Below, in pieces: positions 20,591 to 44,381 of a DNA stretch of 64,000 bases. The stretch is from Nitrosopumilus sp. (GTDB lineage Archaea > Thermoproteota > Nitrososphaeria > Nitrososphaerales > Nitrosopumilaceae). Location: positions 576,001-640,000 of the forward strand of contig OZ243974.1 of assembly GCA_965214775.1 (NCBI GenBank), given 5' to 3'. The notes under the pieces are model-generated. The model was given only the letters and a program-made list of their open reading frames with translations. It was not told the origin of the DNA and searched no databases. Positions within the stretch are counted from its first letter, which is position 1, and every line of letters begins with the position of its first letter. Position numbers and translations under genes: made by a program.

Positions 20591-20816
20591 AGTCATGGCA
20601 ATACCGAAGGGTGAGGGAGCGCAAAAGGTGCAATTCAGTACTTCCTAGGTGTGCTTTTGCAGACCCGCCACGGCATAGCCACTAATTTCGTTTACGCATA
20701 AGGTCTATAGATCAAATCTACGGATCCCTCGCCGATATCGTCTAGAACATCCAGATTGTCACCAAAGCATAGCCTTCCATTATTCGGGGGAGGGACTCGT
20801 GGCTTCGGCGTTCATA

Positions 20817-21060: not shown

Positions 21061-21063
21061 CAT

Positions 21064-21149
21064 GGTGGGTTCACTCAGTCGGTTAGAGTGGCAGGCTTAT
21101 GACCTGCAGGGTTTGACAGCCTTCGTGGGTTCGAATCCCACACCCACCG
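21064..21149 (+). tRNA. tRNA with anticodon TAT (Ile-AUA), long variable arm, G73
   Basis: Perfect stems GGTGGGT/ACCCACC, ACTC/GAGT, GCAGG/CCTGC, GTGGG/CCCAC; TTCGAAT T-loop; 17-nt variable region; T-run downstream. Confidence 0.88.
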
Positions 21150-21190
21150 TATCCTTTTTGTTCTATATTAATTTTCGAGGAGGGGTGTGA

Positions 21191-22312
21191 GTGAACGCAA
21201 GATCCCTACGTGCAAGACAGATCATGGAGACTCCCGGACACGCTACACAGATCATCGGTACGAATGATTTCAGGGTCAGATCCCAGTCCGACCCATCCAA
21301 GTTCTATACGGTATCCAGGACGGGCAGCGGGCTGGTCTGCGAGTGTCCGGACCACCGGAACAGAAGGGCAGACTGCAAGCACATCAAGGTCATACTGGAG
21401 TATATGAGAAGGAACGTGTTCGGACACGAGGGATTCAGGATCATGGAACGGAGCAAGCTGAACCTGTGCAAGTTCTGCGACTCGGGCAATATCGTAAAGG
21501 CCGGACTGAAAAGGAACAAAAAGTCCACGGTACAGAGGTTCAAATGTGCAGACTGCAAGAGGAGGTTTACTACAAACTTTGGTTTTGAGAAGAAGCAGTA
21601 TGACAACAGGATTATCACCGGGGCCCTACAGATGTACTATACTGGAATGTCAGTCCGTGATATAGCGGATCATTACGAGATGATGGGAACCGACGTATCG
21701 TTTAGAACCATATACAACTGGGTTGACGAGTACTCCCGGCTCACGTCCAAATACCTCAACGGCATAGTTCCAAGGGTCGGGAACTGGTTCAGGGCAGACG
21801 AGGTATGGATGAAAATCAACGGCATGCAGTGCTATCTTTTTGCCTCAATGGATGATGATACCCGCTACTGGCTGGCCTCCGACCTGGCAACAACCAAGTT
21901 CCAGCACAATGCGGATTCGCTGCTGGACATGACCAAGAAACAGGCCGGAAAGACACCAAGAAACTTCATCACGGACGGCCTGCCAGCCTATGCCAAGTCC
22001 TCAAGGAGGATATTCGGAAAGGGTACGAACCACGTGAAGCACATCCACCTGGCCGGAAAAAGAGACCGCGATAACAACAACAAGATGGAGAGGCTCAACG
22101 GCGAGATCAGGGACCGTGAGAAGGTGTTCAGAGGATTGAAAAAGACGGATACGGCCATACTTGACGGAATGAGGGTCTATTACAACTATACGAAAAAGCA
22201 CGGTGCACTGGACGGCCAGACCCCGGCAGAATCGGCCCTGATAAGCGTGGATGGCACAAACAAGTGGAAGACTATCGTCCAGAATGCCAGTTTAAGCAGT
22301 GCAACGGAATGA
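21191..22312 (+). CDS. IS6-like DDE transposase with SWIM and Zn-ribbon domains
   Basis: CECPD..CKH; CKFC..FKCADC; FRADE, ITDG, NNKMERLNGEIRDR. Confidence 0.9.
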   Translation: MNARSLRARQIMETPGHATQIIGTNDFRVRSQSDPSKFYTVSRTGSGLVCECPDHRNRRADCKHIKVILEYMRRNVFGHEGFRIMERSKLNLCKFCDSGNIVKAGLKRNKKSTVQRFKCADCKRRFTTNFGFEKKQYDNRIITGALQMYYTGMSVRDIADHYEMMGTDVSFRTIYNWVDEYSRLTSKYLNGIVPRVGNWFRADEVWMKINGMQCYLFASMDDDTRYWLASDLATTKFQHNADSLLDMTKKQAGKTPRNFITDGLPAYAKSSRRIFGKGTNHVKHIHLAGKRDRDNNNKMERLNGEIRDREKVFRGLKKTDTAILDGMRVYYNYTKKHGALDGQTPAESALISVDGTNKWKTIVQNASLSSATE

Positions 22313-23704: not shown

Positions 23705-25015
23705 ATGCAGGATATAGAAGGCGCATTGAGCAGAGTAATCCGACCAGACAACTCGAAGGAGTTTCTCAAAAAGACGATCAGGGAAAACGCGGACAGCTAT
23801 GGCAGCTGCTATGTCAAGCTTGCCATTGTAAAGCAGGACAGGGTAAACTATCTGTACCTGGCAGACATAAGGATCCAGCACGGAAAAGAACCACAAATAA
23901 AAGAAGCAATTTATGACTATCAGGACGCGGTTCTGGCCACCATACCTGTCAAGCTACACGACCTGCAAGGACTAATCGATGAGCTGGAGTCAGGACAGAT
24001 CGTCGTCGGATCCCTGAAAGACATCAAGGCAAAGGGAGGTTTTGAAAACGATATCCACGTGGTCCCTAGCAGGACAAGATACGCGGGTTTTTACGAGGAA
24101 TGGCCCTCGCGGTGTCTCAGGTACTCATTAGACCAAAAAGTAGCTCTCAATAACGTTGCCAGCCATTTAGTAAGGCTTGGACAGCCCTCCTATCCCAGCC
24201 TGCTTGAGGCATGCCGTGTGTTTTTTGGTCACGAGTACAATCCGGCCCAGTACGGTCCAGTGTGCATCAACTTTATGATTCCTGACTTTAGGGCAAGAAT
24301 AAAAACTTTGGAAATCGGGGGAAGGCAGATATCCGTCATTGCCGAACGGCGCGAACAGCCAATGGAAGGCCTCAGAGTCAAGATTTACAGTGCCGGGGGA
24401 GCAGGCAGATTCCACCATTCTGAAGACCTGAATTTGGACTCCTCGGGGTGCGCAAAGATCCATCTGGCATTTGTCCCTGATCAGGTCTACGCCTGGCTGA
24501 TTGATCTGAAAGGCAACGTGCTGGATTGGAAGGAATTCGGGCATCCATACACCAAAAATGACGGCGTGATAGTAAGGACCACCGTCGAGAGCCTTGAGTC
24601 CATGATTGCGGCCGGGGAGGGCCAAAATGTTGAGTTCAAAAGAGATCTGGACGGCAAGACAGACGAGTTTCTCGAATCGGTGGTCTCTTTTGCAAATACT
24701 GACGGCGGCATCATCCTGCTTGGCATAGATGACAGGGGCAGAACAGTCGGGCATTTTGAAGACATTGAGAAGACTGAAAGGAAAATACGGGGGCTGGTCA
24801 GCGGACGCTGTGAGCCAGACATAAACATCAGCATGGAAGAGGTCGGCATGGAAAATAGTCAGGTGGTGATAGTCAGGATAGGGGAGGGGAAAAACAAGCC
24901 GTATTTGCTAAACGGAAAGTCTGCCTACAAGCGAGTGGGGGAAAGAGACCTTGCCTTCAAGCGGCTTGATTTTGATACTGCCTATAATGAAAAACGCGAT
25001 CCCCCAACTAAGTAA
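23705..25015 (+). CDS. Protein with C-terminal AlbA_2/Schlafen domain
   Basis: GEGQNVEFKR..VVSFANTDGGIILLGIDD. Confidence 0.88.
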   Translation: MQDIEGALSRVIRPDNSKEFLKKTIRENADSYGSCYVKLAIVKQDRVNYLYLADIRIQHGKEPQIKEAIYDYQDAVLATIPVKLHDLQGLIDELESGQIVVGSLKDIKAKGGFENDIHVVPSRTRYAGFYEEWPSRCLRYSLDQKVALNNVASHLVRLGQPSYPSLLEACRVFFGHEYNPAQYGPVCINFMIPDFRARIKTLEIGGRQISVIAERREQPMEGLRVKIYSAGGAGRFHHSEDLNLDSSGCAKIHLAFVPDQVYAWLIDLKGNVLDWKEFGHPYTKNDGVIVRTTVESLESMIAAGEGQNVEFKRDLDGKTDEFLESVVSFANTDGGIILLGIDDRGRTVGHFEDIEKTERKIRGLVSGRCEPDINISMEEVGMENSQVVIVRIGEGKNKPYLLNGKSAYKRVGERDLAFKRLDFDTAYNEKRDPPTK

Positions 25016-25020
25016 TTCAT

Positions 25021-25099
25021 AAGACCTTATGTGAATTTGCCAAAAATGACGCAAAAGCTGCATGATTTTTTTGGTCTACACCGATTACGCATAAGGCTA
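25021..25099. mobile_element. MITE family C
   Basis: Homologous to 30406-30485. Confidence 0.8.
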
Positions 25100-25231
25100 C
25101 TGGAAACAAAATGCACTGTTTTATGACCAGAGTGGAAATGTTGGTAAGGGATATCTGATCACATACAATGCATTATTACAATAACACAATAACCTAGATC
25201 CTTATTACTGGCTAGAAGATCCGATCATATC

Positions 25232-26110
25232 ATGTCATTAGATATTCGGATTTGGGATGTCAATCATGGAAATTCTGCTTCTATAAAATTGCCTAATGGA
25301 AAGGTAATAATGATTGATTGCGCAAGAAATCCCGATACTGGTTTTTCTCCCATAATGTTAACTAAGAACATGTGGAGCTGTGAAAGTTTAGATTATCTCA
25401 TAATTAGTCATCCACATATGGATCATATTAGTGATTTTTTAAGAATTGATGAAGTATATCCTGATAAATTTAGGCGTCCTCCCGTTCCGAAAAAAAAGTT
25501 ACTCTATAATGATAAAGGTGAGAAATTAACTGGTACAAAATTAGATATCATAAACAAATACATTGAACTAGATAGCAATTTCACAGAACCTGTAGCATCT
25601 GACGACAAACTTGAAGCTGCTGAGTGGGGTGGAAAAAATGTGAATATTGAGACATTTAGATGGAAGGGGGAACACGATGATCTAAACGATTATAGCTACG
25701 TCACTTTTCTTTCCTACGGTTCATTTCATTATGCTAATGGAGGCGACATAACTTCAACTGGTTGGGAAAAACTGATAGAACAAGAAGGAGCTGCATTCAA
25801 AAAGAAACTTGCTAAAGTGAATTTTTTCGAAGCGTCCCATCATGGGAGAAAAGAGGGATTCAATTCAATTATTTTTGAAGATATGAATCCATATTTGGTA
25901 TTAATTTCTGATAAGAAAGAACAGGATACTAGTGTGACGGATCGTTATTCTAAATATTGTCAGGGTTGGGATATTAACAACGAAAACTCAAATAAAAAAG
26001 AAAAAGGAAGAAAAGTACTTACCACAAGGAATGATGGCAGAATAAGAATTGAAGTTAACGACAAATATGACCATGAAGTAGGAGTTAAAACCTTCAATCG
26101 TTACTTGTAA
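25232..26110 (+). CDS. ComEC/Rec2-type metallo-beta-lactamase-fold hydrolase
   Basis: DVNHGNS, MIDC, SHPHMDH, GGD, ASHHG. Confidence 0.9.
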   Translation: MSLDIRIWDVNHGNSASIKLPNGKVIMIDCARNPDTGFSPIMLTKNMWSCESLDYLIISHPHMDHISDFLRIDEVYPDKFRRPPVPKKKLLYNDKGEKLTGTKLDIINKYIELDSNFTEPVASDDKLEAAEWGGKNVNIETFRWKGEHDDLNDYSYVTFLSYGSFHYANGGDITSTGWEKLIEQEGAAFKKKLAKVNFFEASHHGRKEGFNSIIFEDMNPYLVLISDKKEQDTSVTDRYSKYCQGWDINNENSNKKEKGRKVLTTRNDGRIRIEVNDKYDHEVGVKTFNRYL

Positions 26111-26736: not shown

Positions 26737-26816
26737 TAGACCTTATGCGCATTTGCCAAAAATGACGCAAGAGCTGCCTGATTTTTTTGATCTGCGCCGA
26801 TTACACATAAGATCTA
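26737..26816. mobile_element. MITE family C
   Basis: TAGACCTTATGCG...CACATAAGATCTA. Confidence 0.85.
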
Positions 26817-26857
26817 TTACAAAAGATTATAAAAATTGAGGACCAGCCGTATGTGAC

Positions 26858-28726
26858 ATGACGACTGAGGCAAGCAGAACCCTGTTCGGCGAGCAGATCA
26901 AGGACATCTGCGATCAGATGGGGGTGGAAAAGTCCGACGCCTTTCCAAGGTGGATATGCCAGAACATTCTGGGAATCACCGGCGAGGCAAACATAGACGA
27001 GGCAGTGTCAATCGGGGGCAAAAACGACTACGGCGTAGACATATTCTACGCAGACGAGACGGGCGACATCACAGAGCAGTACGTGTGCTGGATCCAGGCA
27101 AAGTTCGGCGAGGATCTGGATCGGACCGCCAAGCGGGAGGATCTGGAGTCCTTTGCAAGCACGCTGGGCCACCTGAGGGACTGCCCCGACTCTGCCAACC
27201 AGACCTTCAAGCAAAAGTCGGCAGAGTTCATCAGGATGGAGGCGCAGTACCCGCACATCAAAAAGAGGATGATCTTTGCGGTGACGGGCAGGCTCAACGA
27301 GCAGTCAAGGGAGATGGTCAGCAATCCGCGGTGGCTGGAAGAGAAGTTCGGTGCGGGGGGAGGACGCGACGCCAACGTCGACTTTGAGGTGCTGGATCTG
27401 GACGAGATCCTCTCGCGCATGACGATCAGGCACACGCCGACGCTGTCGGTCAAGTTTGACGGGGACGTCATAACGCGGACCGATCCGACCACCGGCAAAA
27501 AGTCGGTAATCGGGTACGTGGCAGCCGACGACCTCGTCAGGATGGCAGCAGAGCACAGGGAGACGATATTCCTTGAGAATCCCCAGCAGACGCTCGGAAA
27601 GGGCGTCCCCACCCACAAAGCAATTCTCAATACCCTTGAGGATGCCGACGGGCGAAGAAAGTTCTGGAAGCTCAACAACGGCATAACTGCCATCTGCACG
27701 GGCTTTGAGGCCGCAGATGACGGCACGTGCCGGATAGAGAACTTCAAGGTCGTAAACGGGAGGCAGACGACGTACACGCTGGAGAACCATACGGGCTCCC
27801 GCGACGGCGTGTACCTGCTGATGATAGTGCACGAGGCCGTAGATGACACCGAGCGCAACGAGATCAGCGAGGCCACGAACACGCAGAACCCGATCAAGCC
27901 CGTGGATCTGGTGACCAACTACCCGGAGATGACGGATCTGGTCCTGCAGTGCAGGAACAGCTTTTGCGACTTTTACTTTGAGAGGCAGACAAAGGGCTTC
28001 AAGTCCGCGAAAAAATCCACGCAGAACCGCGTCACGTGGCGGCGCGTGCTGGAGAAGAGCGCGGCCGCGCGGGCGTACTACGCGTACGAGATAGACCCCA
28101 ACGAGGCGATGCTGCCGGACAAGATCCTGTTTTCGGTTGCGGGCAACGGCGGCGGCGGGGGCAGCGGCCACTATGACAGGATATTCAGGAACCGGGACAT
28201 CGCAGACCTGATAATACCGCATATCTTCATGAGCATGCTTGAGGGCCTGCACAGGAGGTGGTGCGCCGAGCTGAAGGGCAGGCAGTCCGGCGAGTTATCA
28301 AGAAGCAAGGGAATCATCAGCAAGGACATCGTAAAGTACTACCTGCTGCACTTTATCTACAAGTCGATGCTGAGCATAGACGAGTCCGAGAGGCAGCGGA
28401 TCAAGGGCAGGCTGATAGGGACATTCCGCAGTCTGGGCAGAAGGGACGGGGATCCGGACGCGTTTCAGAGCATCGCCAAGTTGGCCTATGACATCTTCAT
28501 GCTGTGCTTTGACACCGAAAGGAGGGAGACGTGGCCCCCTGCACTCCTTGAGAAGATAGGCAGCGACAGGTACGAGGCAGACGAGCGCGACGTGCCAACC
28601 CCGTACGACATAATGTACATGCTCAGGCACAACGGCCCGAAGATCATACTGGACCTGCTGCGCGCAAGGGACCACCAGATAAAGCAGGTAGGCGACAACG
28701 TCAGGGCCGAGCTTCTCAAGCTTTGA
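26858..28726 (+). CDS. AIPR family protein
   Basis: DYGVD..IQAKF; FWKLNNGITAIC; VVNGRQTT; ATNTQNPIK. Confidence 0.9.
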   Translation: MTTEASRTLFGEQIKDICDQMGVEKSDAFPRWICQNILGITGEANIDEAVSIGGKNDYGVDIFYADETGDITEQYVCWIQAKFGEDLDRTAKREDLESFASTLGHLRDCPDSANQTFKQKSAEFIRMEAQYPHIKKRMIFAVTGRLNEQSREMVSNPRWLEEKFGAGGGRDANVDFEVLDLDEILSRMTIRHTPTLSVKFDGDVITRTDPTTGKKSVIGYVAADDLVRMAAEHRETIFLENPQQTLGKGVPTHKAILNTLEDADGRRKFWKLNNGITAICTGFEAADDGTCRIENFKVVNGRQTTYTLENHTGSRDGVYLLMIVHEAVDDTERNEISEATNTQNPIKPVDLVTNYPEMTDLVLQCRNSFCDFYFERQTKGFKSAKKSTQNRVTWRRVLEKSAAARAYYAYEIDPNEAMLPDKILFSVAGNGGGGGSGHYDRIFRNRDIADLIIPHIFMSMLEGLHRRWCAELKGRQSGELSRSKGIISKDIVKYYLLHFIYKSMLSIDESERQRIKGRLIGTFRSLGRRDGDPDAFQSIAKLAYDIFMLCFDTERRETWPPALLEKIGSDRYEADERDVPTPYDIMYMLRHNGPKIILDLLRARDHQIKQVGDNVRAELLKL

Positions 28727-30405: not shown

Positions 30406-30485
30406 TAGACCTTATGCGTATTTGCCAAAAATGACGCAAAAGCTGCCTGGTTTTTTTGATCTTCGTCGATTACGCATAAGGTCTA
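30406..30485. mobile_element. MITE family C (intact, 80 bp)
   Basis: TIR TAGACCTTATGCGTA/TACGCATAAGGTCTA. Confidence 0.9.
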
Positions 30486-30813
30486 GTGCTTAATCTTCTC
30501 AGACTGCAATACCAAAGCTGGGCGCCATTAAGGGGCACTGTCACCAGTCAAAGTATGATCTCGCAATCTCCGAATATTATGTTACATTTGAGATGATAAA
30601 GTGACGCTGTCTGAGTGCATGAGTGCATCCAATACACAGTTTGACATCATGAGATTCATTCGCAAAGGTTCACTACTCTTCATGGATTTATGATCGGCAA
30701 CATACAACACGTTAGAAAAATCACAAACCAGTAGTAATCAAGTATGGCTTTTGAATGGCTTATGAAACGATACTTAAGTACACGGCAAATTTTTGAAATA
30801 AATAAGATGATGG

Positions 30814-32367
30814 CTACATAAAAAACCTGTAATGATCTTTTTTAGTTTTATTGTCGGGCAATTCTGAAAGAATTTTGCCAACCTCGCTTGCAAATTTTAT
30901 AGTAATCGGCAAAGACGTAGAAAAAGAGGTGGTGTTCCAATTTAGTTTTGTCAGACCTAAAATCTCTCTTGCAATCTCTTGGGAGGTGGAATCACCCTCA
31001 TGATGAATTCTGAGAGGGTTGGGAATGCTATGGCCAGGATAGGTTCGTATGCGCGGTGTGTAGCCAGAAGAATATAACAAAAATTTGTCATCATCTAGAT
31101 GAATTATTGTGCCTCTTAGTGGTGGAAATTTTCCCACCCTCATGAAGTTAACTTCACTGTGATCACTCTTGACTGTCACAAAATCTTTACGATAAGTTTC
31201 ATTTCCCAAAATAGCTTCGTTAAATCCGAGTTTTTCATCTGGCAGAAACTCTGTAGTTTTGTGCACTACAACTCGACCTGGATTTTGACCTACTTTTTCT
31301 CGGTATTTGTTTATTGCACGAGATAAGAGATCTTTAGCTTGCACTTTTTTTAGATATGCCTGCTTAGTATGTTCATCAACATCAACCTCTTTCCCTCTTA
31401 GAACCAAGCCTTCACCCGTATGAGTAAAAATTTGAGCCATTGAAATTTGAATGTCTTTTGTAGGGTGTAATTTGTCTCGGAAAAATGAAACTCCCACATA
31501 GCAAGTATCTTGAGGAAGTTTGGCCAATCTCCAAGGTTTACCGTTAGCTTTGTAAAATAATGCAGTACTCAGATTCCATGCAAAAGCACATGGATCTTGC
31601 ATCACATGCTTTGAAATAGAGTCATACTTTAGCATGTGATCACATGTAGTTTCGTGCAAAATTTGAATTGGAATGTCAAATTGCATAATTTTCCCTTTCA
31701 ATGCATGCCGAAAATCAAATGATTTGTCTTGATCCTCCTCCTCATTAGATAGATTAACTCCCCATTCTGAGAGAAATCTTTGTCCAGCATCTTTCATTTT
31801 TTGTAATTTTATTTCTGCTTCAGTAGCTCTCGCCGTTTTTGCCCCTCTTGTTTTTTCTGATATGCCGCAATAAGTTTCGACAATTTTAGGAAGTGTGCAA
31901 ATTACAACGTTTGGCTTGTCATCGTTTTGGCTAATTTTTTTCATTTTTTCGGCAAAAAGATTTGCACCGTATGCAATTCTTTCATTAGGATTTGCTAACT
32001 CAGTGCTGGTGATCTTATTGAGTTCAAAATCGTCAGAAATCTGTTCTTGCCAGATTTTTGACGTGTGGATATTGCATCGAAAACTAGAATCTTTTGTTAG
32101 ACCTGCATAATCTGGAAAGAGCCATTTATTGCCATCATGGTATGTAGGGATTTTGTTTTTGATTAAATCTAGTATATCTAACGTTAATGATATCCCACTT
32201 CTGTTTCCAATAATGCCTATACGTATGCTTTCTAATGGAAAATCTTCATCTTCATATCTAAATGGCCCATATCTGGATAGTCCAATTTTGGGATCCTGCT
32301 CTTCATTTCTACCACCAAACACTAGCTGCGGTTCTCTTACAAACTCAGTGCTAAACATCGGCCTCAT
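30814..32367 (-). CDS. ago: Short prokaryotic Argonaute (MID-PIWI, catalytically inactive)
   Basis: EPQLVFG..DPKIGL..YGP; AWNLSTALFYKANGKPWRL; CYVGVSF (first catalytic Asp replaced); VVVHK; LRGT; ILGLTKLNWN; LPITI. Confidence 0.95.
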   Translation of the reverse strand: MRPMFSTEFVREPQLVFGGRNEEQDPKIGLSRYGPFRYEDEDFPLESIRIGIIGNRSGISLTLDILDLIKNKIPTYHDGNKWLFPDYAGLTKDSSFRCNIHTSKIWQEQISDDFELNKITSTELANPNERIAYGANLFAEKMKKISQNDDKPNVVICTLPKIVETYCGISEKTRGAKTARATEAEIKLQKMKDAGQRFLSEWGVNLSNEEEDQDKSFDFRHALKGKIMQFDIPIQILHETTCDHMLKYDSISKHVMQDPCAFAWNLSTALFYKANGKPWRLAKLPQDTCYVGVSFFRDKLHPTKDIQISMAQIFTHTGEGLVLRGKEVDVDEHTKQAYLKKVQAKDLLSRAINKYREKVGQNPGRVVVHKTTEFLPDEKLGFNEAILGNETYRKDFVTVKSDHSEVNFMRVGKFPPLRGTIIHLDDDKFLLYSSGYTPRIRTYPGHSIPNPLRIHHEGDSTSQEIAREILGLTKLNWNTTSFSTSLPITIKFASEVGKILSELPDNKTKKDHYRFFM

Positions 32368-33832
32368 CGTTATGTCTCACTTCCAATACATTCGCTTCCA
32401 CTTCTGGTTCATAATTTTCTATCATATTTTTTAGATCTGTTGTAGGTCTGTCCCAAGAAATGCCATATTTTGACTTTGTTTGAATGGGTTCGGATGATAT
32501 CACAAAATCTTCCAAGACATGTATGTCATTCCCATTACTGAGTTTGTTACTCCAAAATAAAATGTTGTTTAGATGTGCATCATTGTACTTGTTGTAGGAT
32601 AATTTTGTGATTATGGTACCTTCTCGTAAACCAGATATCACTCGACGGCCATCAGATGTAATAACAAACGTAGGACTAATTTTAAGATAGAATTTTTTAT
32701 TTATTTCTTCAAAAGATGCTTTGATTGCCGGATGTAATATAATGTCAGATTTTATTTGTGAAGCATGCATTGGATTAGCTACAATTCTACGAGCTGCTCT
32801 AAATTTTGAAGGCCAGGACATAAATCGTTTTTGATTGTCAGAGGAGAAAAATAATTTTTTAGTTTTACCGTTAAACCTCATCCCTTGTTTTATTCCACAA
32901 CCAGCAATCTCTTTGTTCATTAAAGATACAACTATGTTTCTTTTGTCTTTGTCATCTAACCATTGTGATGTTTTTTCAATAGCGATAGTTGATGTGTCTA
33001 CAAGACGTGAATAGGGATTCGTGGAATCTGTCAAGTTTTGTAGTGAAATCAATTTGTTTTCGCGAAGGATGATCAAATCAACGGGATATGTCATGTGTTT
33101 TTTTAACTCATTAGCAATGTCTTCTCTATTAAAAAATTTTGAAGTTCCAAGGAATATTTTTTCAGGAAATTTTTTTATTTCAAATAAATTACTGTATAAT
33201 GTTTCGTCTATTTTATCAGGCTCTCCTGAGATTATTGATATGTTATAGTTTTCATCTTTAACCCTCTGATTTATCCAGTCAATTTCAAATTGTGAGGCAG
33301 GAATGCTTTGAGTTCCACGTCTGATGAAGACTGTTCCTTTCTTAAATGCAGACAATTGCTTGGGGTTATCGTCATACTTGAAAAACCCATCTTTTTTTGG
33401 TATGGCCAGTTCACGTGAAGGTTTTACATAGATTAATCCAAATCGTCGTCGCTCACCATCCACGGTTTTATAAAATTCATCATAGCAGATTTCAAGAATC
33501 GTGTTAGAGTAAGAATCAAGTTTCTGTTGCAGAGTAGCTGGCTCTAAATGAAAATGCGTAGGCAGTCCAGTGGGAAGAAATTTGCCCTTTACCTCTGGAT
33601 CCAAATGTTGGTTTTCAGCCATTCCAAGTAAAACAAAACCCCCACCATAATTTGCAAATGCTAGAGCATCCTTGACAAATTTTGGAAAATCAGAATTTTT
33701 CTCTGTGCTGATAATTCGTTTGTAATCCAGAAACGGGGTTTCTTTTTGTAATGAGAATAGGTAGTTTTTTACAAAATCTCCTGTTGGATCAAATAATTCG
33801 TCATTTATCCTTACTCCCACTTTGTCAGACAT
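32351..33832 (-). CDS. AlbA_2/Schlafen-APAZ fusion (pAgo partner)
   Basis: N-terminal ETPFLDYK..KDALAFANYGGGFVLLG..FIRRGTQS; C-terminal APAZ-like ETLYSNLF..YLKISPTFVITSDG; overlaps the ago start. Confidence 0.88.
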   Translation of the reverse strand: MSDKVGVRINDELFDPTGDFVKNYLFSLQKETPFLDYKRIISTEKNSDFPKFVKDALAFANYGGGFVLLGMAENQHLDPEVKGKFLPTGLPTHFHLEPATLQQKLDSYSNTILEICYDEFYKTVDGERRRFGLIYVKPSRELAIPKKDGFFKYDDNPKQLSAFKKGTVFIRRGTQSIPASQFEIDWINQRVKDENYNISIISGEPDKIDETLYSNLFEIKKFPEKIFLGTSKFFNREDIANELKKHMTYPVDLIILRENKLISLQNLTDSTNPYSRLVDTSTIAIEKTSQWLDDKDKRNIVVSLMNKEIAGCGIKQGMRFNGKTKKLFFSSDNQKRFMSWPSKFRAARRIVANPMHASQIKSDIILHPAIKASFEEINKKFYLKISPTFVITSDGRRVISGLREGTIITKLSYNKYNDAHLNNILFWSNKLSNGNDIHVLEDFVISSEPIQTKSKYGISWDRPTTDLKNMIENYEPEVEANVLEVRHNDEADV

Positions 33833-34668
33833 GTTTATTTTTGGTATTGTTAATTTATTTATTTACCGATTGGCATTTTTTTACAACAGGATCGAGTTTG
33901 TGAAGAATTGGCCCGTGGTTTACTGCCGATCATAAATCATTGAAAAATAACGAGTCTCTGTGGATGAACCCATGATGCAATCTCTATACTGAGTCTCTTG
34001 CACTTTTTGCACAACTCGGAAAGGCATTCCAGTACGGAAAAACACTGAAAATCCAAAAATTCAAAGGCCACTCTCGTTAGAACCCAAAGGACATCATCAA
34101 AAAATATGATGAGATTACTCAAGTTGGATTATCTTTTCATGACTCTAAATCAGAAAATTTGACTCCGGAAACGACTTTTCGTATACGAAGGCGGATAATC
34201 AAACCAAAAGGACAATCAGAACCAAAAGTTTTGGCTCATTTTGAATTCAGGAGTGGGGGAAAGAGACATCAAAAATCGATGAGCTGTCCTCATAATCCAA
34301 AGCAAACCTACATGATATAGTATCCACAAGTTATGTCAGAAAAAATCATGATTGTGTAAATTTGAGAAGATAATCTTCTCAGACGGGCAGACGGGGGTCG
34401 ATGAATAGCTAAAAACTCTAGACTTTTGACGGGCAAAAGACTCAAAAGATTACAAGGTGTATAGTATAATGTGACAGGATAGAAAGGGAAATAGCCAATA
34501 CCCTCAGATTTTGTAAACTCCGTGTTTTCATGCTCATTTGACTCCTGTCACGTTCTTGATATTCCTCCGTGTATAATATTATAATTTCAAAATTGGTTAT
34601 CTGTGATTGATCGTAATAATTTCAGTCCACGAATGATGATTTTATCTCGTCGGTCAGAAAATGTTAGT

Positions 34669-34954: not shown

Positions 34955-35138
34955 CAAAAGTTACACTATGTACATTTTTGGGCGGCCAAAAGTTACACTA
35001 TGTACATTTTTGGGCGGCCAAAAGTTACACTATGTACATTTTGGGGCGGCCAAAAGTTACACTATGTACATTTTGGGGCGGCCAAAAGTTACACTATGTA
35101 CATTTTGGGGCGGCCAAAAGTTACACTATGTACATTTT
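34955..35138. repeat. 32-bp tandem repeat x5.7 (iteron/centromere-like)
   Basis: Unit CAAAAGTTACACTATGTACATTTT(T/G)GGGCGGC. Confidence 0.95.
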
Positions 35139-35189
35139 GTACATTTTGCAAAAAGTTGGCCCTTAAACGTGAAATTACAGATACAGTAC

Positions 35190-35486
35190 ATGCCTGAAAA
35201 AAAATACTATAGAAAGGTGCGCAGGCAGGGCCATAGCCTCGTCATCACGATTCCAAATGCGCTGGTGGAGAATCTCGACATTGACGAGGATCAGATCGTC
35301 GAGTTTGTGAGTTTTGAGGATCGGATGGAATTAGTCCCCATGCGGACCCAGCACACCTCATCAAGCGAAGGCGGCAAGGACAGGTACGATCTTGCGCTTG
35401 ACAGGGCAATGGAGAACTCCAAAAAGCACAGGGAGGAGCCGGATGCCTCCTATGATAAAAAACTGGAAAGGCTGCACCTCAAATGA
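35190..35486 (+). CDS. AbrB/MazE/SpoVT-family DNA-binding protein
   Basis: YYRKVRRQGHSLVITIPNALVENLDI; start reassigned to MPEKK. Confidence 0.88.
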   Translation: MPEKKYYRKVRRQGHSLVITIPNALVENLDIDEDQIVEFVSFEDRMELVPMRTQHTSSSEGGKDRYDLALDRAMENSKKHREEPDASYDKKLERLHLK

Positions 35487-38400
35487 CCAGGGCCGTCACT
35501 CCCTGCCTCTCCCTTTCTTCCAGGGTCTCGAAGATCTTGTGGATCTTCGGGCTCCTTGACCACACGTGACACTGCTCAAACCCCAGTCTTGGCCACTTTG
35601 TCATGTTGTACCTGACATGCTCGGGGTGGCTCTGGACTTCTGCGGCAGACTCTATCTCCACGCTTATCGGCGTCTCGTTATAGTAGTCATAGGCGACAAG
35701 GTCCGTCCTGTCCTGCCCCTTCCTGATCCTCTGGGAGGCCAGGGTTACAAACATCCCCTTCTTCAGATACGTGTCAAATATCTTCCTGGTGACTGCCTCT
35801 ATCTCCTGTGCAGACCCGATCTCTGCAAAATCCAGGTCAAAGTATGTCCTTTTGGAGCTTTCGGTGAGCTCGTACGGGGACAGCCTGTTTTCGGGCTCCG
35901 TCTTTGCCACCAGTTTGCGGGCCACCAGATCCTTGAGGACCTTGAGGACCTCGGACCTGTTTGAGACCCGGAGCCGGGAGGCCATGTCCACCTGCTGCAT
36001 GGGCTTTCCTCCCCCTCCTCCTCCTCCCAGCAGCATCAGCATTATCCTCCACTCCATGTGCGTCGGAAATCTGACGGATATGCTCTCAAGCCACTTGTTC
36101 CTGTTTGCGGCAGTCTGCCTGACAATCGTGTCCTCCACCGTTCCCCTGCCGTACAGGGCAAGCTGCTCGGCGAGAAACTGCCCATACGCGTCTCGCCTGT
36201 CAGGGGCTCGGGGGGCATGTTGAGCCAGAACTGTATCGGGGGCGGCTGTTCCTCGCCCGGAGGCGATTTTTCCCGTATGGTCCAGTGAAAGTATTCCTGG
36301 CTTGCAAACTGCTGCATGAGCTCCTTTTGGAACTGGGGATCCCATATCTGTGATATTCTGGAGGCGTCCTTGCCGTTGACCTTGCCGATCAGCTGGGTTC
36401 CGGAGTTTCCCGTAATCAGTCCCAGCTGCTTGTCGCTGATCTGCTCTGTGGTCTGGTGTGACAGGATCAGCCCCAGTCCCAGGGATCGCGCCTGCTCCAG
36501 CATCAGCTGCAGCACCTGGAGATCCTTGACTATCTGGAACTCGTCCAGGGCAAGGATCACCTGGGTCCTGTTCTTCTCGTCGGGGATCCTGTTTGCGCGC
36601 TCCTGGACGGTAAACCACAGCTTCAGGATGAATGCCTGCATGGCCAGGGGCTGCACGTGGTGGGGCATGTTGAGCGGGGATATCCTGACGACCGTGTACC
36701 TGCCGGACCTTATTATCTCGTTGAAATCGACCGTTCCGTGCCTTACGGAGAACATTCTTTTCAGGACGGGATCCGTGGCAAACTGCTCTATCCTGTTTAG
36801 CAGCGGGGTAAACGCATCCACCTTCAGGGTTGCGATACTCTCAAGGGCCTGCTCCATCTCCGTGTCCGGGGTCCCGAATGTGTCCATTATCTTTGGCAGC
36901 GCGTCGTTCTTGTCGCGCTGCAGCCGCAGTATGATGTCATGGATGTCAAGAAACGTGGGCGCGTCATGCCTCATGTATATGTAAAACAGCAGCGCGCGGA
37001 ATATCCTCTCCATCTGGACAAAGCTGGCAGACTGCTGGTACCACTCCTCGATGGTCTTCATGAAATAGCCCACGTACCTGGACACCACCTCCTCGCGCTC
37101 GCGCGGCCGGTGCGCGGGCAGCTCCAGCGGATTGATTGAGAATCGGGTCTGCTGCGGATCCAGAAAGTGAATCCTGTTGTCGTCCAGGGTGTCGGGCTCA
37201 CACTGCTTGATGAACTTGTGCGAATCATCGCCCTTGGGATCTACATACACGAACGCGTTGGGAAACTCCCCGGAATTGTTCCACATCTCCAGATGCTTTG
37301 CAAGAATCCTGATGAGCGATGTCTTGCCGGAGCCTGATGCGCCCACGGCGTACACGTGGTTTGCAAAGTCGCCGGTGGATATCACTGCAGCATCAATGTC
37401 TTTGGATTTGCTGATCGCCCCCCATAGCGCACTCCAGTCAAACGTCTCGGACGTCCTTGGCTTGAAGAATCCCAAGCTCGAGCCGATCTTCTCGGAAGGC
37501 TTGGCGGGAATCGCGACTCCCCGCGTGGTGCTTATGTTCGGGGTAAACGGGTTTGGCAGGTGTATGAACAGCGGTATCTCCGACAGGTTCAGTATCAGAA
37601 ACGGCAGCGGCGTCCGCTCCCTGTACCCGCCAATCCAGCCCCTCTCAAAGTATCGCGCAAACGCCCCGTCCAGAAACGGTCCCGGGTCGGGCAAAAGCCT
37701 GGACTCGAACATCCTGATTCTCTGATGTTTCTGGGAATCACCGCGGATTCTGATCAGGGGTGCCTTCTTCTTCCTGCCCTCGGAATAGAACTCGCCGTAC
37801 TTGTACCGGAACTTTGTGAGATGCTCGTGTCCGGAGCGGATGTTCTCAAGCGGAAGCGCCTCTATCTCGTCAAAGTGCAGGTCGATGTCCGAGTCGCTCT
37901 GTATCACGCCCCTGATGCTCATCAGCATGTGCGCGCTCTGCATCTTCAGCGTGGCGTGCTTTTGCAGTCCGGTATAGTTGTTGGTAAAGTCGTATCCCAT
38001 CTCAGGGTGGTCGTGCGGCTGCCTGTCGGGATGCATCAGTATCTCCGTGTTGGACAGGTACCTGCCGCGCCTTATCTCGATGTTCTTCTCATCCAGGCGG
38101 GTCACGTGCCTGCGCAAGAACGCGTTAAAGCTGTAGTGCCTGAATGCAAACTGTATCCATGCGTATTTGGACAGCTGGATCGTGTTTGCGATCTGGGTTA
38201 TTATCTGGTGTGACTTTGTCTGGTCAAATACTGCGGTATAGTGGCCGTGATAGGTCCCCACGTCAAACACCTGGTACTCTGACTTTGCGTCAAACCATTC
38301 CGGCGTGATCCTCCTGAGATCCTCGAACGCGGCGTTTGGGTACATGTTTGCAAACGCCTGCTTGAAGCTTGGGAGGTCCTTGGACTCCCCGACCAGGACG

Positions 38401-38624
38401 AACTGGAGCCGCTTTTCCGTGCTGTCCCACCACATCTCAAAGCTTCTGATGCCTGCGCTTACAAGGCCGCCCGCGGACAGCACCGCCTCCTTTTTGTCCA
38501 TGGTGATCGGGATCATTACGGAGCATGCGGCCAGCCTGTTAGGCGCTGCAAGAAATTTCGTTATGCCGTCCAGCTGGCCCTTCTGCTTTTTCGTATTTGC
38601 AAGATGCCATCGCCGCGAGCCCAA
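35479..38624 (-). CDS. VirD4/TrwB-like coupling ATPase with C-terminal wHTH + PD-(D/E)xK-like domain; 1-nt frameshift near 36192
   Basis: HVYAVGASGSGKT, YVDPKGD, SINPL, LALDEFQ, ARSLGLGLILSHQ; reading continues in the other frame as DAYGQFL...RTDLVAYD..ISVEIES. Confidence 0.85.
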
Positions 38625-39490: not shown

Positions 39491-40327
39491 TTATGATTTG
39501 GCGGCCATGCTGTAAAGCCCCCTTGCGTTGCTCATTACGGGATCATCCGGAATCACAATCTTGAATTTCTTCAGCCCTTCCAGCAGGGCACTGTTCATCC
39601 CGGGCAGCAGCAGCCCTCCTCCGGACAGTGCTATGGGGTACCTGTTGCCATAGTTTTCGGACATCTCGCAGATCTCGTTGATCAGGTTTTCTGCCATGAT
39701 CTTTGTATAGATCTTGCAGGTATCTGAATTTTCGTAGATCCTTTGAACGTCCAGATGCGCGAACTTGCCAATCTTTTTTGTGACAAAGCTGGACGCCCAT
39801 TGTGAACTCTCGCCATCGATTACCTCGAGTGCGTCTATCACGATGATCTCTGTTGTGCCCTGTCCGATCGACACCACGATGCCGCTTTCCCGTTTGAGAT
39901 CAACCAGGGTTCCGGATGCCTGGGCGACCACGATGCATTTCTCGGCGCCAAGTATCCTTTTTACCGTTCTTGACATCGAATCCCTATAGTCAAACGCGTG
40001 ATATGGCAGGCCCACTGCTATTCTCGTGGGCGTGTCCGTGCCCATGGGAATCTTTGCAAGTCCATAGACCTGAGACATTGATTCTTTTATGATCATCTCT
40101 GCCTGTTTTTGGTATTTTGGATCAGGCCTGCCTTTCCGGATTGGGCTTATTGCGCTGGCCCCCATCGTAGACAGTATTGACTGTGCCTGTGTTCCGACCA
40201 GCTCCGATGTCTTGCTTGTCCAGTTCCCGTGGATTCGCTTTACATAGACGGACGGAAATCTGAAAGAGCCATGGTTTGAGACGCACTTTACGAATCCCGT
40301 TCCGATGTCAAGTCCTATCTTTAGCAT
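39491..40327 (-). CDS. ParM/StbA-like actin ATPase
   Basis: IGLDIGTGFVK..FPSV; VGLP; VSIGQGTT; LSGGG; PVMSNARG; start reassigned to MLKIG. Confidence 0.88.
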   Translation of the reverse strand: MLKIGLDIGTGFVKCVSNHGSFRFPSVYVKRIHGNWTSKTSELVGTQAQSILSTMGASAISPIRKGRPDPKYQKQAEMIIKESMSQVYGLAKIPMGTDTPTRIAVGLPYHAFDYRDSMSRTVKRILGAEKCIVVAQASGTLVDLKRESGIVVSIGQGTTEIIVIDALEVIDGESSQWASSFVTKKIGKFAHLDVQRIYENSDTCKIYTKIMAENLINEICEMSENYGNRYPIALSGGGLLLPGMNSALLEGLKKFKIVIPDDPVMSNARGLYSMAAKS

Positions 40328-40388
40328 ACAATGCAAGGCGTCAGGGCAATTTAAGGGGCAGATGACCTGCGTTTGGGATCCATAGATG

Positions 40389-40415
40389 TGGACGCGGCCG
40401 GGATTTGAATCCGGG
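40389..40415 (-). other. tRNA 3'-half-like sequence (T-arm + acceptor strand)
   Basis: Reverse complement CCCGGATTCAAATCCCGGCCGCGTCCA. Confidence 0.5.
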
Positions 40416-40557
40416 CATCTTTGGGTCTTTTGTAAGCCATTAACGGTACGTAAAGGAATCATACGCGAGGTCAAAGGCATCCTGCGTCTGCTGCTCCTTC
40501 AAACCCCCTCCATGACGTCAGATCTGAGATACTTGGCCGATACAAGGCTCTGTTAAC

Positions 40558-42405
40558 TCAACCGCTTGATTCCATGTGTTTATGTGCCATGGTAATGTAT
40601 CCCAATAGCCCGTCTCTGTCTACTAATCTCACACCTGTGCTATCAGCCAGCGTGCGTGCTGCTTTTGTAAATCCCGAATTCGTGATCACCCATCCTTCAT
40701 CTGCGCCATAATGATTAAGACTTGCATGTACCTCTTGTATTGCCTTGTTGCCTACATTGTTGAAATGTCTTTTGGCTTGTACTGATATCGTTTTACCGTC
40801 TTTTTTCATAAGAAGATCACATCCAAAATCACCTGTTGCACGTGTCATTGTTACTTTGTAACCTAACTCTTCAAATATTTCTTTTAACAATACTTCGAAT
40901 TCATGACCTTCCATCACATCCATTCTCTCTGCGCCAAATCGAATTTGTGCCTCGTGCGCTATACGTTCACCCTCCTTTTTGTCGTGCATGTAAATTCCTA
41001 TTCCAATCACAAGTACGGCGCAGGCAATGCCCCAGATAACAAATCCAAGTGTATCATTAGAGAAAAAAACCACAACAGATAATACCCAAACAACAAATGA
41101 GGCGGCACATATTGCTGTCCCACGGCGTCCGTTCACTTGTTTCATATGGAAATTGGTTCCGCCCCTCATTAGCATCCTTCTCCACTCCTTCTGGATCCTT
41201 TTGTAGCGTTTGATGAACGCAGCTATGACGACAAGCAACAGAAATAAAACCACAATGATGAGAATCTCCGATCCGGTCTGAGGAGGCGGCTGTGCCGGCT
41301 GCGCCTGTGCAGGCTGTTGTACTGGTACACTGCCAGATGATACGGATCTTGCAGGCAAACCAGGTGCCGGCTGCGCCTGTGCAGGCTGTTGTACTGGTGC
41401 AGTTTTTACCGTAACTGTAAACTTTACTGAAGAGGTTTGTATACCATCAGACACAGATACCGTAAAGTCATGCCTGCCCACGTCGTTTGCTTCGGGAGTC
41501 CATTTTATCACTCCGGTGGATTGGTTTATGGTGGCTCTGCGTGGCGCGTTGTCCAAAGCGTATGTAAGTTTGTCACCATCACCATCCGTTGCCTTGACAG
41601 TATGCTCAAATGCATCCTGCGTGGTTATTGTTTGGTCTGCAATTAGGCTTGGTGACGGTGAGTTGTTAGTGGAAGGTGACTGCGTGGGTATGAGAAACTC
41701 AAAATCGGCTTTGGCTACAGTGCTCATGTAGTGTGCCTCCACCGTATAGGTGCCATCCGTCTTCCACAACGGCTTGTCTGTCAGTACATCAATGAGAAAT
41801 TCACCGTTGTCGACAATCAGCTGTTCTACACGAAGCATGCTGTCGTTCGGCGTCCTGATGATGACGGTCACATTGTTGTCATATGAATCGGTATGGGCGG
41901 TGATTACTTTTCCCGATATGGTTATCTGGTCTCCTAGATTGTATTTAGAACTGTCAGTCTCGACCGCCAGTGATATTGCCTGGGCGGGTGTAGGTGACTG
42001 CCTGTTGATGCTTGAGTATGCGGAGGGATCTTGTCTGACCTCAAAGGTAAGCTGACCCATGCTGCCACCGTCCTGATTCCGACCAGATACAATGTAAGTT
42101 CCCAATTGGGAATTGTAGTCAAGTGGCAAGGGGATCTCAAACATCCCATCAGAGCTTGTTGATATTTTATGCCTTTCCACCGAGTCATTCGGCGCCGTAA
42201 TGATGATCTCGACCTCCTGCCTGTAATCAAGATTAGTCCAGCCAGATATTTTTACAACTGTTTCCTTGTATTTCTCTACAAAGTACAGGTGAGGATCAAC
42301 TTCGATCCCGCCGTTTCTGGTTTCGACTACAACGGCAAATACCCCCGGCTGCCAAATACCAATGATGAGCAGGGTCACGCAAGCACAGGAAGTTATGCTA
42401 TACAT
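40558..42405 (-). CDS. Membrane-anchored Mrr-type endonuclease with extracellular Ig-like domains
   Basis: Signal peptide, Ig/cadherin-like ATDGDGDKLTY..TGVIKWTP, 3 TM helices, EFE..GY..GDFGCDL..VQAKR..VITNS.FT..A. Confidence 0.88.
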   Translation of the reverse strand: MYSITSCACVTLLIIGIWQPGVFAVVVETRNGGIEVDPHLYFVEKYKETVVKISGWTNLDYRQEVEIIITAPNDSVERHKISTSSDGMFEIPLPLDYNSQLGTYIVSGRNQDGGSMGQLTFEVRQDPSAYSSINRQSPTPAQAISLAVETDSSKYNLGDQITISGKVITAHTDSYDNNVTVIIRTPNDSMLRVEQLIVDNGEFLIDVLTDKPLWKTDGTYTVEAHYMSTVAKADFEFLIPTQSPSTNNSPSPSLIADQTITTQDAFEHTVKATDGDGDKLTYALDNAPRRATINQSTGVIKWTPEANDVGRHDFTVSVSDGIQTSSVKFTVTVKTAPVQQPAQAQPAPGLPARSVSSGSVPVQQPAQAQPAQPPPQTGSEILIIVVLFLLLVVIAAFIKRYKRIQKEWRRMLMRGGTNFHMKQVNGRRGTAICAASFVVWVLSVVVFFSNDTLGFVIWGIACAVLVIGIGIYMHDKKEGERIAHEAQIRFGAERMDVMEGHEFEVLLKEIFEELGYKVTMTRATGDFGCDLLMKKDGKTISVQAKRHFNNVGNKAIQEVHASLNHYGADEGWVITNSGFTKAARTLADSTGVRLVDRDGLLGYITMAHKHMESSG

Positions 42406-44175: not shown

Positions 44176-44381
44176 GGCAACAGCCCTACCTTCTGGGCAG
44201 CTTGGCAGACGTCACTATCGCGAACCTGGCCTCCCTCATCTCTGGCCTCTTGAGGGCGGCCCTGAGTTTTTCTACGGAGGAGTACTTGTAGACCGAGAGT
44301 TTCCCGTTTTCGGCGCCCAGAAACTTTGAGACGCCGCGGGGGAGCGCCGATACCGGGGCCCCCTTGTCGCCCACAAGCGAG

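Follow-up and report, generated by a model that had tools for sequence, protein, structure and literature searches.

Which effector response might a short prokaryotic Argonaute (pAgo) trigger when its operon partner joins a Schlafen domain to an APAZ domain, and how could such an effector be switched on? The question is raised by a 64,000-nucleotide (nt) stretch of the Nitrosopumilus sp. genome (assembly GCA_965214775.1, contig OZ243974.1, positions 576,001 to 640,000 of the forward strand), hereafter the window, in whose numbering the coordinates below are given. On its minus strand lies an operon of two genes, each beginning with ATG: the first (32351..33832) is a 493-amino-acid (aa) open reading frame (ORF) for a SLFN(AlbA_2)-APAZ partner protein, and the second (30814..32367) a 517-aa ORF for a short pAgo with MID and PIWI domains only. 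The answer that we hold, with moderate confidence and by analogy with characterized systems, is that the pair forms a short pAgo abortive-defense system in which guide-directed DNA sensing would lead to tRNA cleavage by the Schlafen-APAZ effector. In the ORF listing, the two frames share 17 nt (32351-32367), and the GC content of the operon is 35.8% against 49.7% for the window, which bears out the overlapping, AT-rich two-gene operon described in an initial annotation made from the DNA letters and translations. Compared with their homologs, both ORFs are complete in length and retain every invariant residue, their matches lie far above chance, the two genes are found together at over 80 independent loci, and partner homologs with identical architecture number 152. 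The module is an intact two-gene Argonaute defense system and an ordinary member of the SLFN-APAZ/short-pAgo branch.

The pAgo matches the PADLOC pAgo_I model from end to end (E 6e-143, residues 6-517 against 2-455 of 455), and its residues 9-516 align with 6-506 of the solved 507-aa SPARTA pAgos. It comprises MID and PIWI without N or PAZ domains and is of the short class-I type, in agreement with the MID-PIWI-only architecture first proposed for it. Pfam gave no match for this protein, and the long-Argonaute equivalogs of NCBIfam gave sub-threshold matches only; its matches among PDB structures are the SPARDA pAgo (E 2.7e-63), the SPARHA pAgo (E 2.5e-62), the SPARTA pAgos (E 1.8e-52 to 7.5e-50), the Piwi-domain protein 8in8_C (E 1.4e-22) and TtAgo (E 3.5e-3). 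An alignment of 18 orthologous pAgos (A2) contains a predicted MID 5′-phosphate pocket of the RK/HK type, R220-K224-Q235-(N265)-K273 (31549..31710, minus strand), which follows the canonical H/R-K-Q-K arrangement and is assigned by pattern and spacing rather than structural superposition. Its K224, Q235, N265 and K273 are found in 18/18 sequences; position 220 holds R in 14 of them, H in 3 and W in 1. The Y/R/H-K-Q-K pocket is described in the accessible text of Ryazansky 2018 as near-universal in short pAgos, with the HK and RK forms typical.

The PIWI domain (about residues 285-517; 30817..31515, minus strand) is predicted to have lost its catalytic function. For comparison we used TtAgo, with its sequence taken from its plasmid record, whose catalytic tetrad we take to be D478/E512/D546/D660, D546 being corroborated by the PDB name ‘TtAgo (D546N)’. 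The hhalign comparison of A2 positions 336-489 with TtAgo 515-663 (probability 95.3%) places D546 on T371 (in the family, S in 10, T in 5 and K in 3) and D660 on S494, which is variable in the family; both are non-acidic, so that the tetrad lacks an acidic residue at two or more of its four positions. The initial annotation had pointed to a GVSF motif in place of the catalytic Asp. This motif is indeed present at residues 292-295, with G292 in 18/18 pAgos and position 294 occupied by S in 16 and A in 2, but it could not be aligned with the catalytic Asp of a reference Argonaute, so that this part of the claim stands as a motif-level reading. As far as these alignments tell, the pAgo is a sensor with a catalytically inactive PIWI domain.

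The region of the partner that would dock on this pAgo is its APAZ (N-L1-L2-like) domain (residues 203-458; 32459..33226, minus strand), delimited by PADLOC and PDB matches. It matches the PNTD1-PNTD2 part of ten PADLOC Argonaute-associated models, the best being Aga_REase-PNTD1-PNTD2 (E 7.2e-36). When a profile of 56 partner homologs (A1) is searched against the PDB sequences, its APAZ half recovers the SPARHA HNH-APAZ protein (9om4_A, E 5.1e-31, partner residues 206-453) and the SPARDA DREN-APAZ proteins (9qbp/9jsb, E about 1e-9 to 7.5e-8), and its N-terminal half recovers CbCash, an AlbA_2 nuclear magnetic resonance (NMR) structure and mammalian Schlafens. The APAZ-like C-terminus, one of the points on which the initial annotation had let its proposal stand or fall, is thus present. 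Because both APAZ and pAgo best match the SPARHA and SPARDA structures, the chassis is, judging from these similarities, a short pAgo/APAZ pair closest to the nuclease-bearing ‘S2B’ systems, a clade name found in the available texts of Koopal 2022 and the SPARHA paper. A search of 1.84 billion representative proteins with the A1 profile retrieved 146 at E <= 1e-30; by our own count, full-length SLFN-APAZ proteins make up about 38 of the top 150 matches, and below about 1e-40 the APAZ part alone matches. The ten nearest non-Schlafen APAZ neighbors sampled comprise six with TIR domains, one with a calcineurin-like phosphoesterase and three without a Pfam domain, which is the familiar swapping of effectors on one chassis. 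One of the closest APAZ relatives (P0236, 693 aa) bears an N-terminal calcineurin-like metallophosphoesterase (PF00149, E 1.6e-11) and may represent another short-pAgo effector type, one not seen named in the literature searched.

Beyond the APAZ domain, the partner ends in an acidic tail (residues 467-493; 32354..32434, minus strand), defined by its composition of 8 D/E versus 2 K/R. Beyond residue 466, 55 of the 56 A1 members have a net acidic sequence, with a median D+E content of 35% versus 14% for the whole protein. In SPARTA, the acidic C-terminal tail of TIR-APAZ is reported to plug the guide/target channel, and its deletion to de-repress the enzyme; likewise, the SPARDA preprint, in the part available, describes a negatively charged DREN-APAZ C-tail that fills the duplex groove in the apo state. 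By analogy, the partner tail may be autoinhibitory.

The effector itself is predicted to reside at the partner N-terminus, where Pfam delimits a Schlafen/AlbA_2 nuclease-like domain (residues 31-179; 33296..33742, minus strand). The match to PF04326 (SLFN_AlbA_2) has an E-value of 2.6e-7 and 31.6 bits against a gathering cut-off of 25.3, and covers profile positions 1-117 of 118. This is the sole Pfam domain of the N-terminus; no HNH, DREN (DUF4365) or TIR effector domain is found there, and the matches of the partner to SPARHA, SPARDA and SPARTA proteins in PADLOC and PDB are confined to the APAZ part, from residue 185 onwards. The AlbA_2 assignment and the motifs first noted in it (E-x4-D-x-K, AFAN and GGG) hold as originally written. 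The predicted catalytic motif is E31-x4-D36-x-K38 (33719..33742, minus strand), identified by alignment to the CbCash triad. Conservation marks out the segment of residues 56-73 (33614..33667, minus strand), with the Schlafen box (A-F-A-N), the GGG core and a putative third acidic residue, E73; residues 58-70 of the translation read A58-F-A-N61-Y-G63-G-G65-F-V-L-L-G70 (AFANYGGGFVLLG).

Among 66 partner N-termini collected from the loci (A3), E31, D36, K38, A58, N61, G63-65, G70, Q102, K104, R171 and R172 are invariant (66/66), and D55 is retained in 64/66. Position 73 is acidic in 59/66, a count based on alignment rather than structural geometry. E73 aligns with the second D of the ‘GVDD’ of rat SLFN13, which we take to be the third acidic metal ligand of that enzyme. 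The profile of the 66 N-termini matches rat SLFN13 (5yd0, E 1.2e-4) and CbCash (9ylu, E 4.8e-4) in the PDB, and also the AlbA_2 NMR structure 2kyy, SLFN14 and SLFN11. In the HMMER alignment, the family motif ‘kEtaelDfK’ lies on ‘rETRKVDLK’ of CbCash, which places E31/D36/K38 on E17/D22/K24, and the E-x4-E-x-K of rat SLFN13 falls on this segment too. According to the Cash paper, in its accessible part, E17/D22/K24 of CbCash form the Mg-bound catalytic center, and mutants in these residues lose tRNA cleavage. The RzAgo preprint describes for SLFN-pAgos and mammalian Schlafens the same combination of E-x4-(D/E)-x-K, a SAFAN box and a Gly/hydrophobic core. The Schlafen domain is accordingly best described as a plausible nuclease with a conserved triad.

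Conservation of this kind bears directly on the idea that AlbA_2 is here a non-catalytic nucleic-acid-binding or regulatory module, and that the pair sequesters nucleic acids or recruits host factors. E31, D36 and K38 are invariant although the A3 sequences share a mean identity of just 43% over the whole partner, an acidic residue occupies the third position in 59/66, and no conserved third gene is available to supply an effector in its place. These observations make the idea improbable, even though Ryazansky 2018 counts Schlafen/AlbA_2 among DNA-binding domains, a 2018 review calls Schlafen a ‘predicted regulatory ATPase’ in a legend, and, as the introduction of the Cash paper has it, several mammalian Schlafens lack catalytic residues.

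A survey of AlbA_2-APAZ/pAgo pairs, which had been proposed along with the initial annotation, shows that the two genes travel together. The partner profile found 23 loci in species-representative genomes: 21 archaeal loci of the full-length type and 2 bacterial ones matching the Schlafen part only. In 19/21 of the archaeal loci, the gene immediately downstream, on the same strand, encodes the pAgo, the remaining two being one that ends inside the partner gene (L016) and a 120-aa fragment (L019), so that all 19 loci with contig room are paired. In metagenomes, the pAgo follows the partner in 65/80 loci; 14 of the 15 exceptions have at most 157 nt of contig left, and among the loci with room 65/66 are paired, the exception (L099) being a match to the Schlafen part alone. 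The pAgo also adjoins the partner in all five further genomes of the host's class that were checked. The flanks of 56 loci reveal no conserved third gene; a small upstream ORF without a Pfam match is shared by just nine closely related loci. The distance matrices of partner and pAgo correlate across 60 non-redundant pairs (Mantel r 0.94, 0/999 permutations as high), a statistic inflated by kinship. The partner and the pAgo are an obligate, self-contained pair.

At several loci, the two proteins are a single chain. Fused partner-pAgo ORFs occur in L014 (with an identical pAgo in L082), L017, L018 and L051, and P0269-P0271 are fused proteins of 995-1020 aa; P0136 and P0146 have fused-size lengths (913 and 981 aa). 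Since the fused forms are spread over four distinct positions of the pAgo tree, fusion or fission has recurred. The fusions at L014 (6085-8841), L017 (1748-4597), L018 (5941-8919) and L051 and those of P0269-P0271 span 919-1020 aa and come from Thorarchaeota, Bathyarchaeota and unclassified archaea. The L014 frame is open 5′ of its first ATG, extending over the catalytic motif, and its start is uncertain.

All 21 full-type matches in the species-representative genomes are archaeal, with hosts in Nitrososphaeria (including Nitrosopumilaceae and Nitrosotenuis), Bathyarchaeia, Methanoperedens, ANME-1, Archaeoglobus, Methanomassiliicoccaceae, Nano- and Woesearchaeota and Thorarchaeota; the SLFN-APAZ/short-pAgo family is predominantly archaeal. 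The window's genome is itself archaeal, as the archaeal SSU and LSU rRNA models come out on top in the Rfam clan competition. The full-length type is found in 7/401 genomes of the host's class, counting the window's own and one broken copy (G208), and APAZ-part-only matches in six further genomes of that class. Of 40 other genomes queried with the single protein, 24 from the same genus and 16 from the same order, none yielded the partner, and no relative of it was found among IMG/VR viral contigs with the patterns used. Such a patchy distribution fits an accessory, horizontally moved module. The broken copy (G208:C1:45483-47078) is a decayed SLFN-APAZ gene in the same genus, appearing as two split matches with one TAG and one TAA inside.

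How could these components act together? We propose a sequence of steps whose first part is modeled on SPARTA, SPARDA and SPARHA. The APAZ domain of the 493-aa partner would bind the MID-PIWI pAgo and thereby restore a long-Argonaute-like heterodimer, and the RK-type MID pocket would load 5′-phosphorylated small RNA guides, with no target cleavage expected from the pAgo. At rest, the acidic partner tail would lie within the guide/target channel; once the guide had paired with complementary invader DNA, the tail would be expelled and the pAgo remodeled, upon which the heterodimers would oligomerize. The oligomer would unite single-lobe Schlafen domains into an active nuclease built on E31-D36-K38 and E73. 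For the last part, the models are RzAgo, Cash and the bacterial Schlafens: host tRNAs would be cut and translation would stop, leaving the infected or plasmid-bearing cell arrested or dead, i.e., an abortive infection. Such a route from guide-directed DNA sensing to tRNA cleavage by the Schlafen domain is plausible, with RzAgo and Cash as its precedents.

The chassis relatives from which the first steps are borrowed differ in what they do once activated. SPARHA shares the two-gene short pAgo/APAZ operon and offers the best solved APAZ match (9om4), next to a pAgo match of E 2.5e-62; as published, its RNA-guided DNA sensing activates the effector via filaments. Unlike the present pair, it employs an HNH DNase, was characterized in bacteria and has DNA degradation as its output. 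SPARDA (9qbp, 9jsb) provides the best solved pAgo match (E 2.7e-63) and a homologous APAZ (E 1.5e-9), and the negatively charged APAZ C-tail reported for it parallels that of the window partner, but its effector is a PD-(D/E)XK-type DREN that assembles as tetramers within filaments and cleaves both DNA and RNA without discrimination. SPARTA is alike in architecture and has homologous pAgos (E ~1e-52); acidic C-tail autoinhibition and target-driven oligomerization have been reported for it, whereas its effector is a TIR NADase and its output NAD+ depletion.

Cash and RzAgo, in turn, are related through the effector. CbCash (9ylu) has a homologous Schlafen domain (E 4.8e-4) whose E-D-K triad aligns residue for residue with that of the partner, and Cash is described as a sensor-activated tRNase forming an oligomer or filament; its sensor, however, is a Csx15 domain that binds cyclic oligoadenylate downstream of type III CRISPR and not an Argonaute. 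RzAgo and the other SLFN-pAgos combine an Argonaute sensor with a Schlafen nuclease that has E-x4-(D/E)-x-K, a SAFAN box and a single lobe. In the available text of the Kuzmenko et al. 2026 preprint, an RNA guide and a DNA target lead RzAgo to tRNA cleavage and abortive infection, the Schlafen lobe must pair, and a GHKL ATPase drives the tetramerization that joins two single-lobe Schlafen domains. Unlike the pair described here, SLFN-pAgos are single long-B polypeptides of 1,071-1,187 aa with PAZ and a GHKL ATPase and no APAZ; they are nearly all bacterial, with one Asgard member, and the same preprint calls the Schlafen domains of SLFN-APAZ only distantly related to theirs. Neither window protein has a GHKL (PF13749) or PAZ match, and the system is split and includes APAZ. 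It is not an SLFN-pAgo member, though it may work in a similar way.

Several points weigh against the proposed mechanism. The third acidic position varies, being Q or K in 7/66 N-termini. The GHKL ATPase domain that RzAgo needs for its tetramerization is missing here. TtAgo D478 and E512, the first two tetrad positions, fall outside the hhalign alignment on which the loss of PIWI function is argued. The literature searches found no biochemical or structural result for the split SLFN-APAZ/short-pAgo subtype. AlbA_2 is listed as DNA-binding in older literature (Ryazansky 2018, as far as its accessible text goes). The closest characterized pAgo/APAZ relatives, SPARHA and SPARDA, degrade DNA and, therefore, the chassis itself is no pointer to RNA.

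The last two of these points also feed the nearest competing account, in which the sensor logic is the same and the Schlafen domain is a broad collateral nuclease acting on DNA, rRNA or mRNA rather than directed at tRNA: the nearest solved relatives of both pAgo and APAZ are DNases and AlbA_2 was formerly annotated as DNA-binding. SLFN13, the best PDB match of the N-terminal profile, cuts rRNA as well as tRNA. On the other hand, the catalytic triad aligns with that of a tRNase, CbCash, and the prokaryotic Schlafen effectors considered (CbCash, RzAgo and the bacterial pSlfns) all cleave tRNA according to the portions of the reports available; a broad collateral nuclease is on this balance rather unlikely, and we retain tRNA cleavage as the preferred output.

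The partner contains one Schlafen lobe and has no Pfam match to an ATPase domain; as RzAgo requires its GHKL ATPase and none is present here, activation must differ. In the light of other short systems, Schlafen assembly should come from target-induced pAgo-pAgo contacts. We therefore entertain, as evenly poised between right and wrong, a more specific view of the branch as a mostly archaeal, ATPase-free Schlafen-Argonaute in which target-induced oligomerization of the chassis pairs single-lobe Schlafens into a tRNase. Oligomerization would on that view replace the GHKL ATPase of the bacterial SLFN-pAgos or the helicase domain of mammalian Schlafens. The lineages to which it would apply are ammonia oxidizers, anaerobic methanotrophic archaea (ANME), Methanoperedens, Bathyarchaeia, DPANN and Asgard archaea.

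The pairing as such is already catalogued. Ryazansky 2018 gives an APAZ orthogroup in which SIR2_1 is joined to Schlafen, and also lists certain long pAgos with a fused Schlafen domain; ‘Schlafen/Alba’ appears among the APAZ-appended domains named by Guo 2023 in the introduction to their preprint; the Cash paper links a Schlafen ‘Cluster 6’ to short pAgos; and the SPARHA paper mentions ‘additional uncharacterized effectors’ in S2B. Argonaute and APAZ both go unmentioned in the main text of a Nature Microbiology paper on bacterial Schlafens. Full-text literature searches, with supplements outside their reach, found no experimental study of a split SLFN-APAZ/short-pAgo system. The window thus provides a further member of a catalogued, experimentally uncharacterized subtype. 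The initial annotation knew of no characterized example of this effector class, ‘least of all in archaea’: its first half survives in that no experimental study was found, although the class itself was already listed, and its second half fails, as the family is predominantly archaeal and a characterized archaeal short pAgo abortive-infection system has been reported, SiAgo-Aga1-Aga2 of Sulfolobus islandicus. The latter differs, on the published description available, in having three components, a membrane effector (Aga2) and no Schlafen domain.

Short pAgo systems are modular sensor chassis, and each effector characterized so far (TIR, SIR2, DREN and HNH) has given a new activation mechanism. 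Of the already listed Schlafen-APAZ branch, the survey adds that it is essentially archaeal, always a self-contained pair, several times fused, equipped with an acidic tail resembling a nucleic-acid mimic and free of the ATPase needed by the only characterized Schlafen-Argonaute. The literature examined has no mention of the near-exclusive archaeal range, the recurrent fusions, the acidic tail or the residue-level match to the Cash triad. Should the ATPase-free view of the branch be true, archaea would have their first case of tRNA depletion triggered by an Argonaute, and Argonaute and Schlafen immune modules would have been joined a second time, independently. The pair is a compact candidate for how a guide/target signal alone could assemble a Schlafen tRNase, and it could offer a way into the biology of abortive infection in archaea of environmental importance that have no genetic systems.

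The surroundings of the operon are those of a mobile element. The interval 21063-45410 is a mosaic defense island on an integrated plasmid-like element or one resembling an integrative and conjugative element, beside a tRNA-Ile gene, with a GC content alternating from ~35% to ~58% from module to module. The tRNA-Ile(TAT) gene (21063-21150), to the right of which the operon lies, is the only Rfam match over the window, with no RNA family near the operon; no tRNA-derived attachment repeat was found within the window. From left to right, the island encodes a DDE transposase (21191-22312); a second Schlafen/AlbA_2 protein (23705-25015, plus strand); a PDC-M48B-like metallo-beta-lactamase-fold (MBL) protein (25232-26110) and, after it, two small ORFs that match no family; an AIPR/AbiU protein (26858-28726); and, beyond the operon, an ORF ending in a MazE/AbrB-like domain (34968-35486), a TraG/VirD4-like coupling ATPase (36042-38624), a ParM/ALP-like actin (39491-40480), an Ig-domain Mrr nuclease (40558-42405) and a second transposase (44364-45410). 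The transposases are of the DDE and rve types, and a prepilin peptidase is also encoded within the island.

Between the modules lies a ~80-nt repeat with ~15-nt terminal inverted repeats (25021-25129, 26737-26845 and 30406-30514, with a half copy at 20688-20707), one copy being ~300 nt downstream of the pAgo gene. It is dispersed genome-wide, with at least 40 matches listed of 198 candidates, and looks like a host element resembling a miniature inverted-repeat transposable element (MITE). An integron-like cassette reading of this repeat was dropped because it is scattered over the whole genome; its fold, moreover, is no better than that of shuffles (z -0.8).

Such a setting could also house a decaying or silent mobile-element passenger without current function. 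The operon is AT-rich foreign DNA on an element with transposases and host MITE-like insertions, and the copy in the same-genus genome G208 is broken by two stops. In the window, by contrast, both ORFs are full length and keep all invariant residues, and their translationally coupled overlap is intact, which makes a decaying or silent passenger very improbable. A TATA-like, AT-rich stretch 19-33 nt 5′ of the partner ATG (33851..33865, minus strand), read from the letters, is a possible archaeal promoter that would yield a near-leaderless operon mRNA.

Two further observations concern the island. A 32-bp tandem repeat of 5.8 copies with 99% identity (34955-35139) overlaps the 5′ part of the ORF at 34968-35486 and adjoins the TraG/VirD4-like ATPase and ParM-like genes; it may be iteron-like mobile-element DNA, in which case the long start of that ORF would be spurious. 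The second Schlafen/AlbA_2 protein (436 aa) has E-x4-E-x-K, SFAN and GIDD motifs in a C-terminal domain (residues 305-415, E 2.8e-23), and its first ~300 residues are without a Pfam family; the protein has a weak match to PADLOC PDC-S50 and could be another sensor-Schlafen defense protein. Outside the window, a third PF04326 match in the same genome (G000:C1:884159-884575) lies within a 645-aa open frame.

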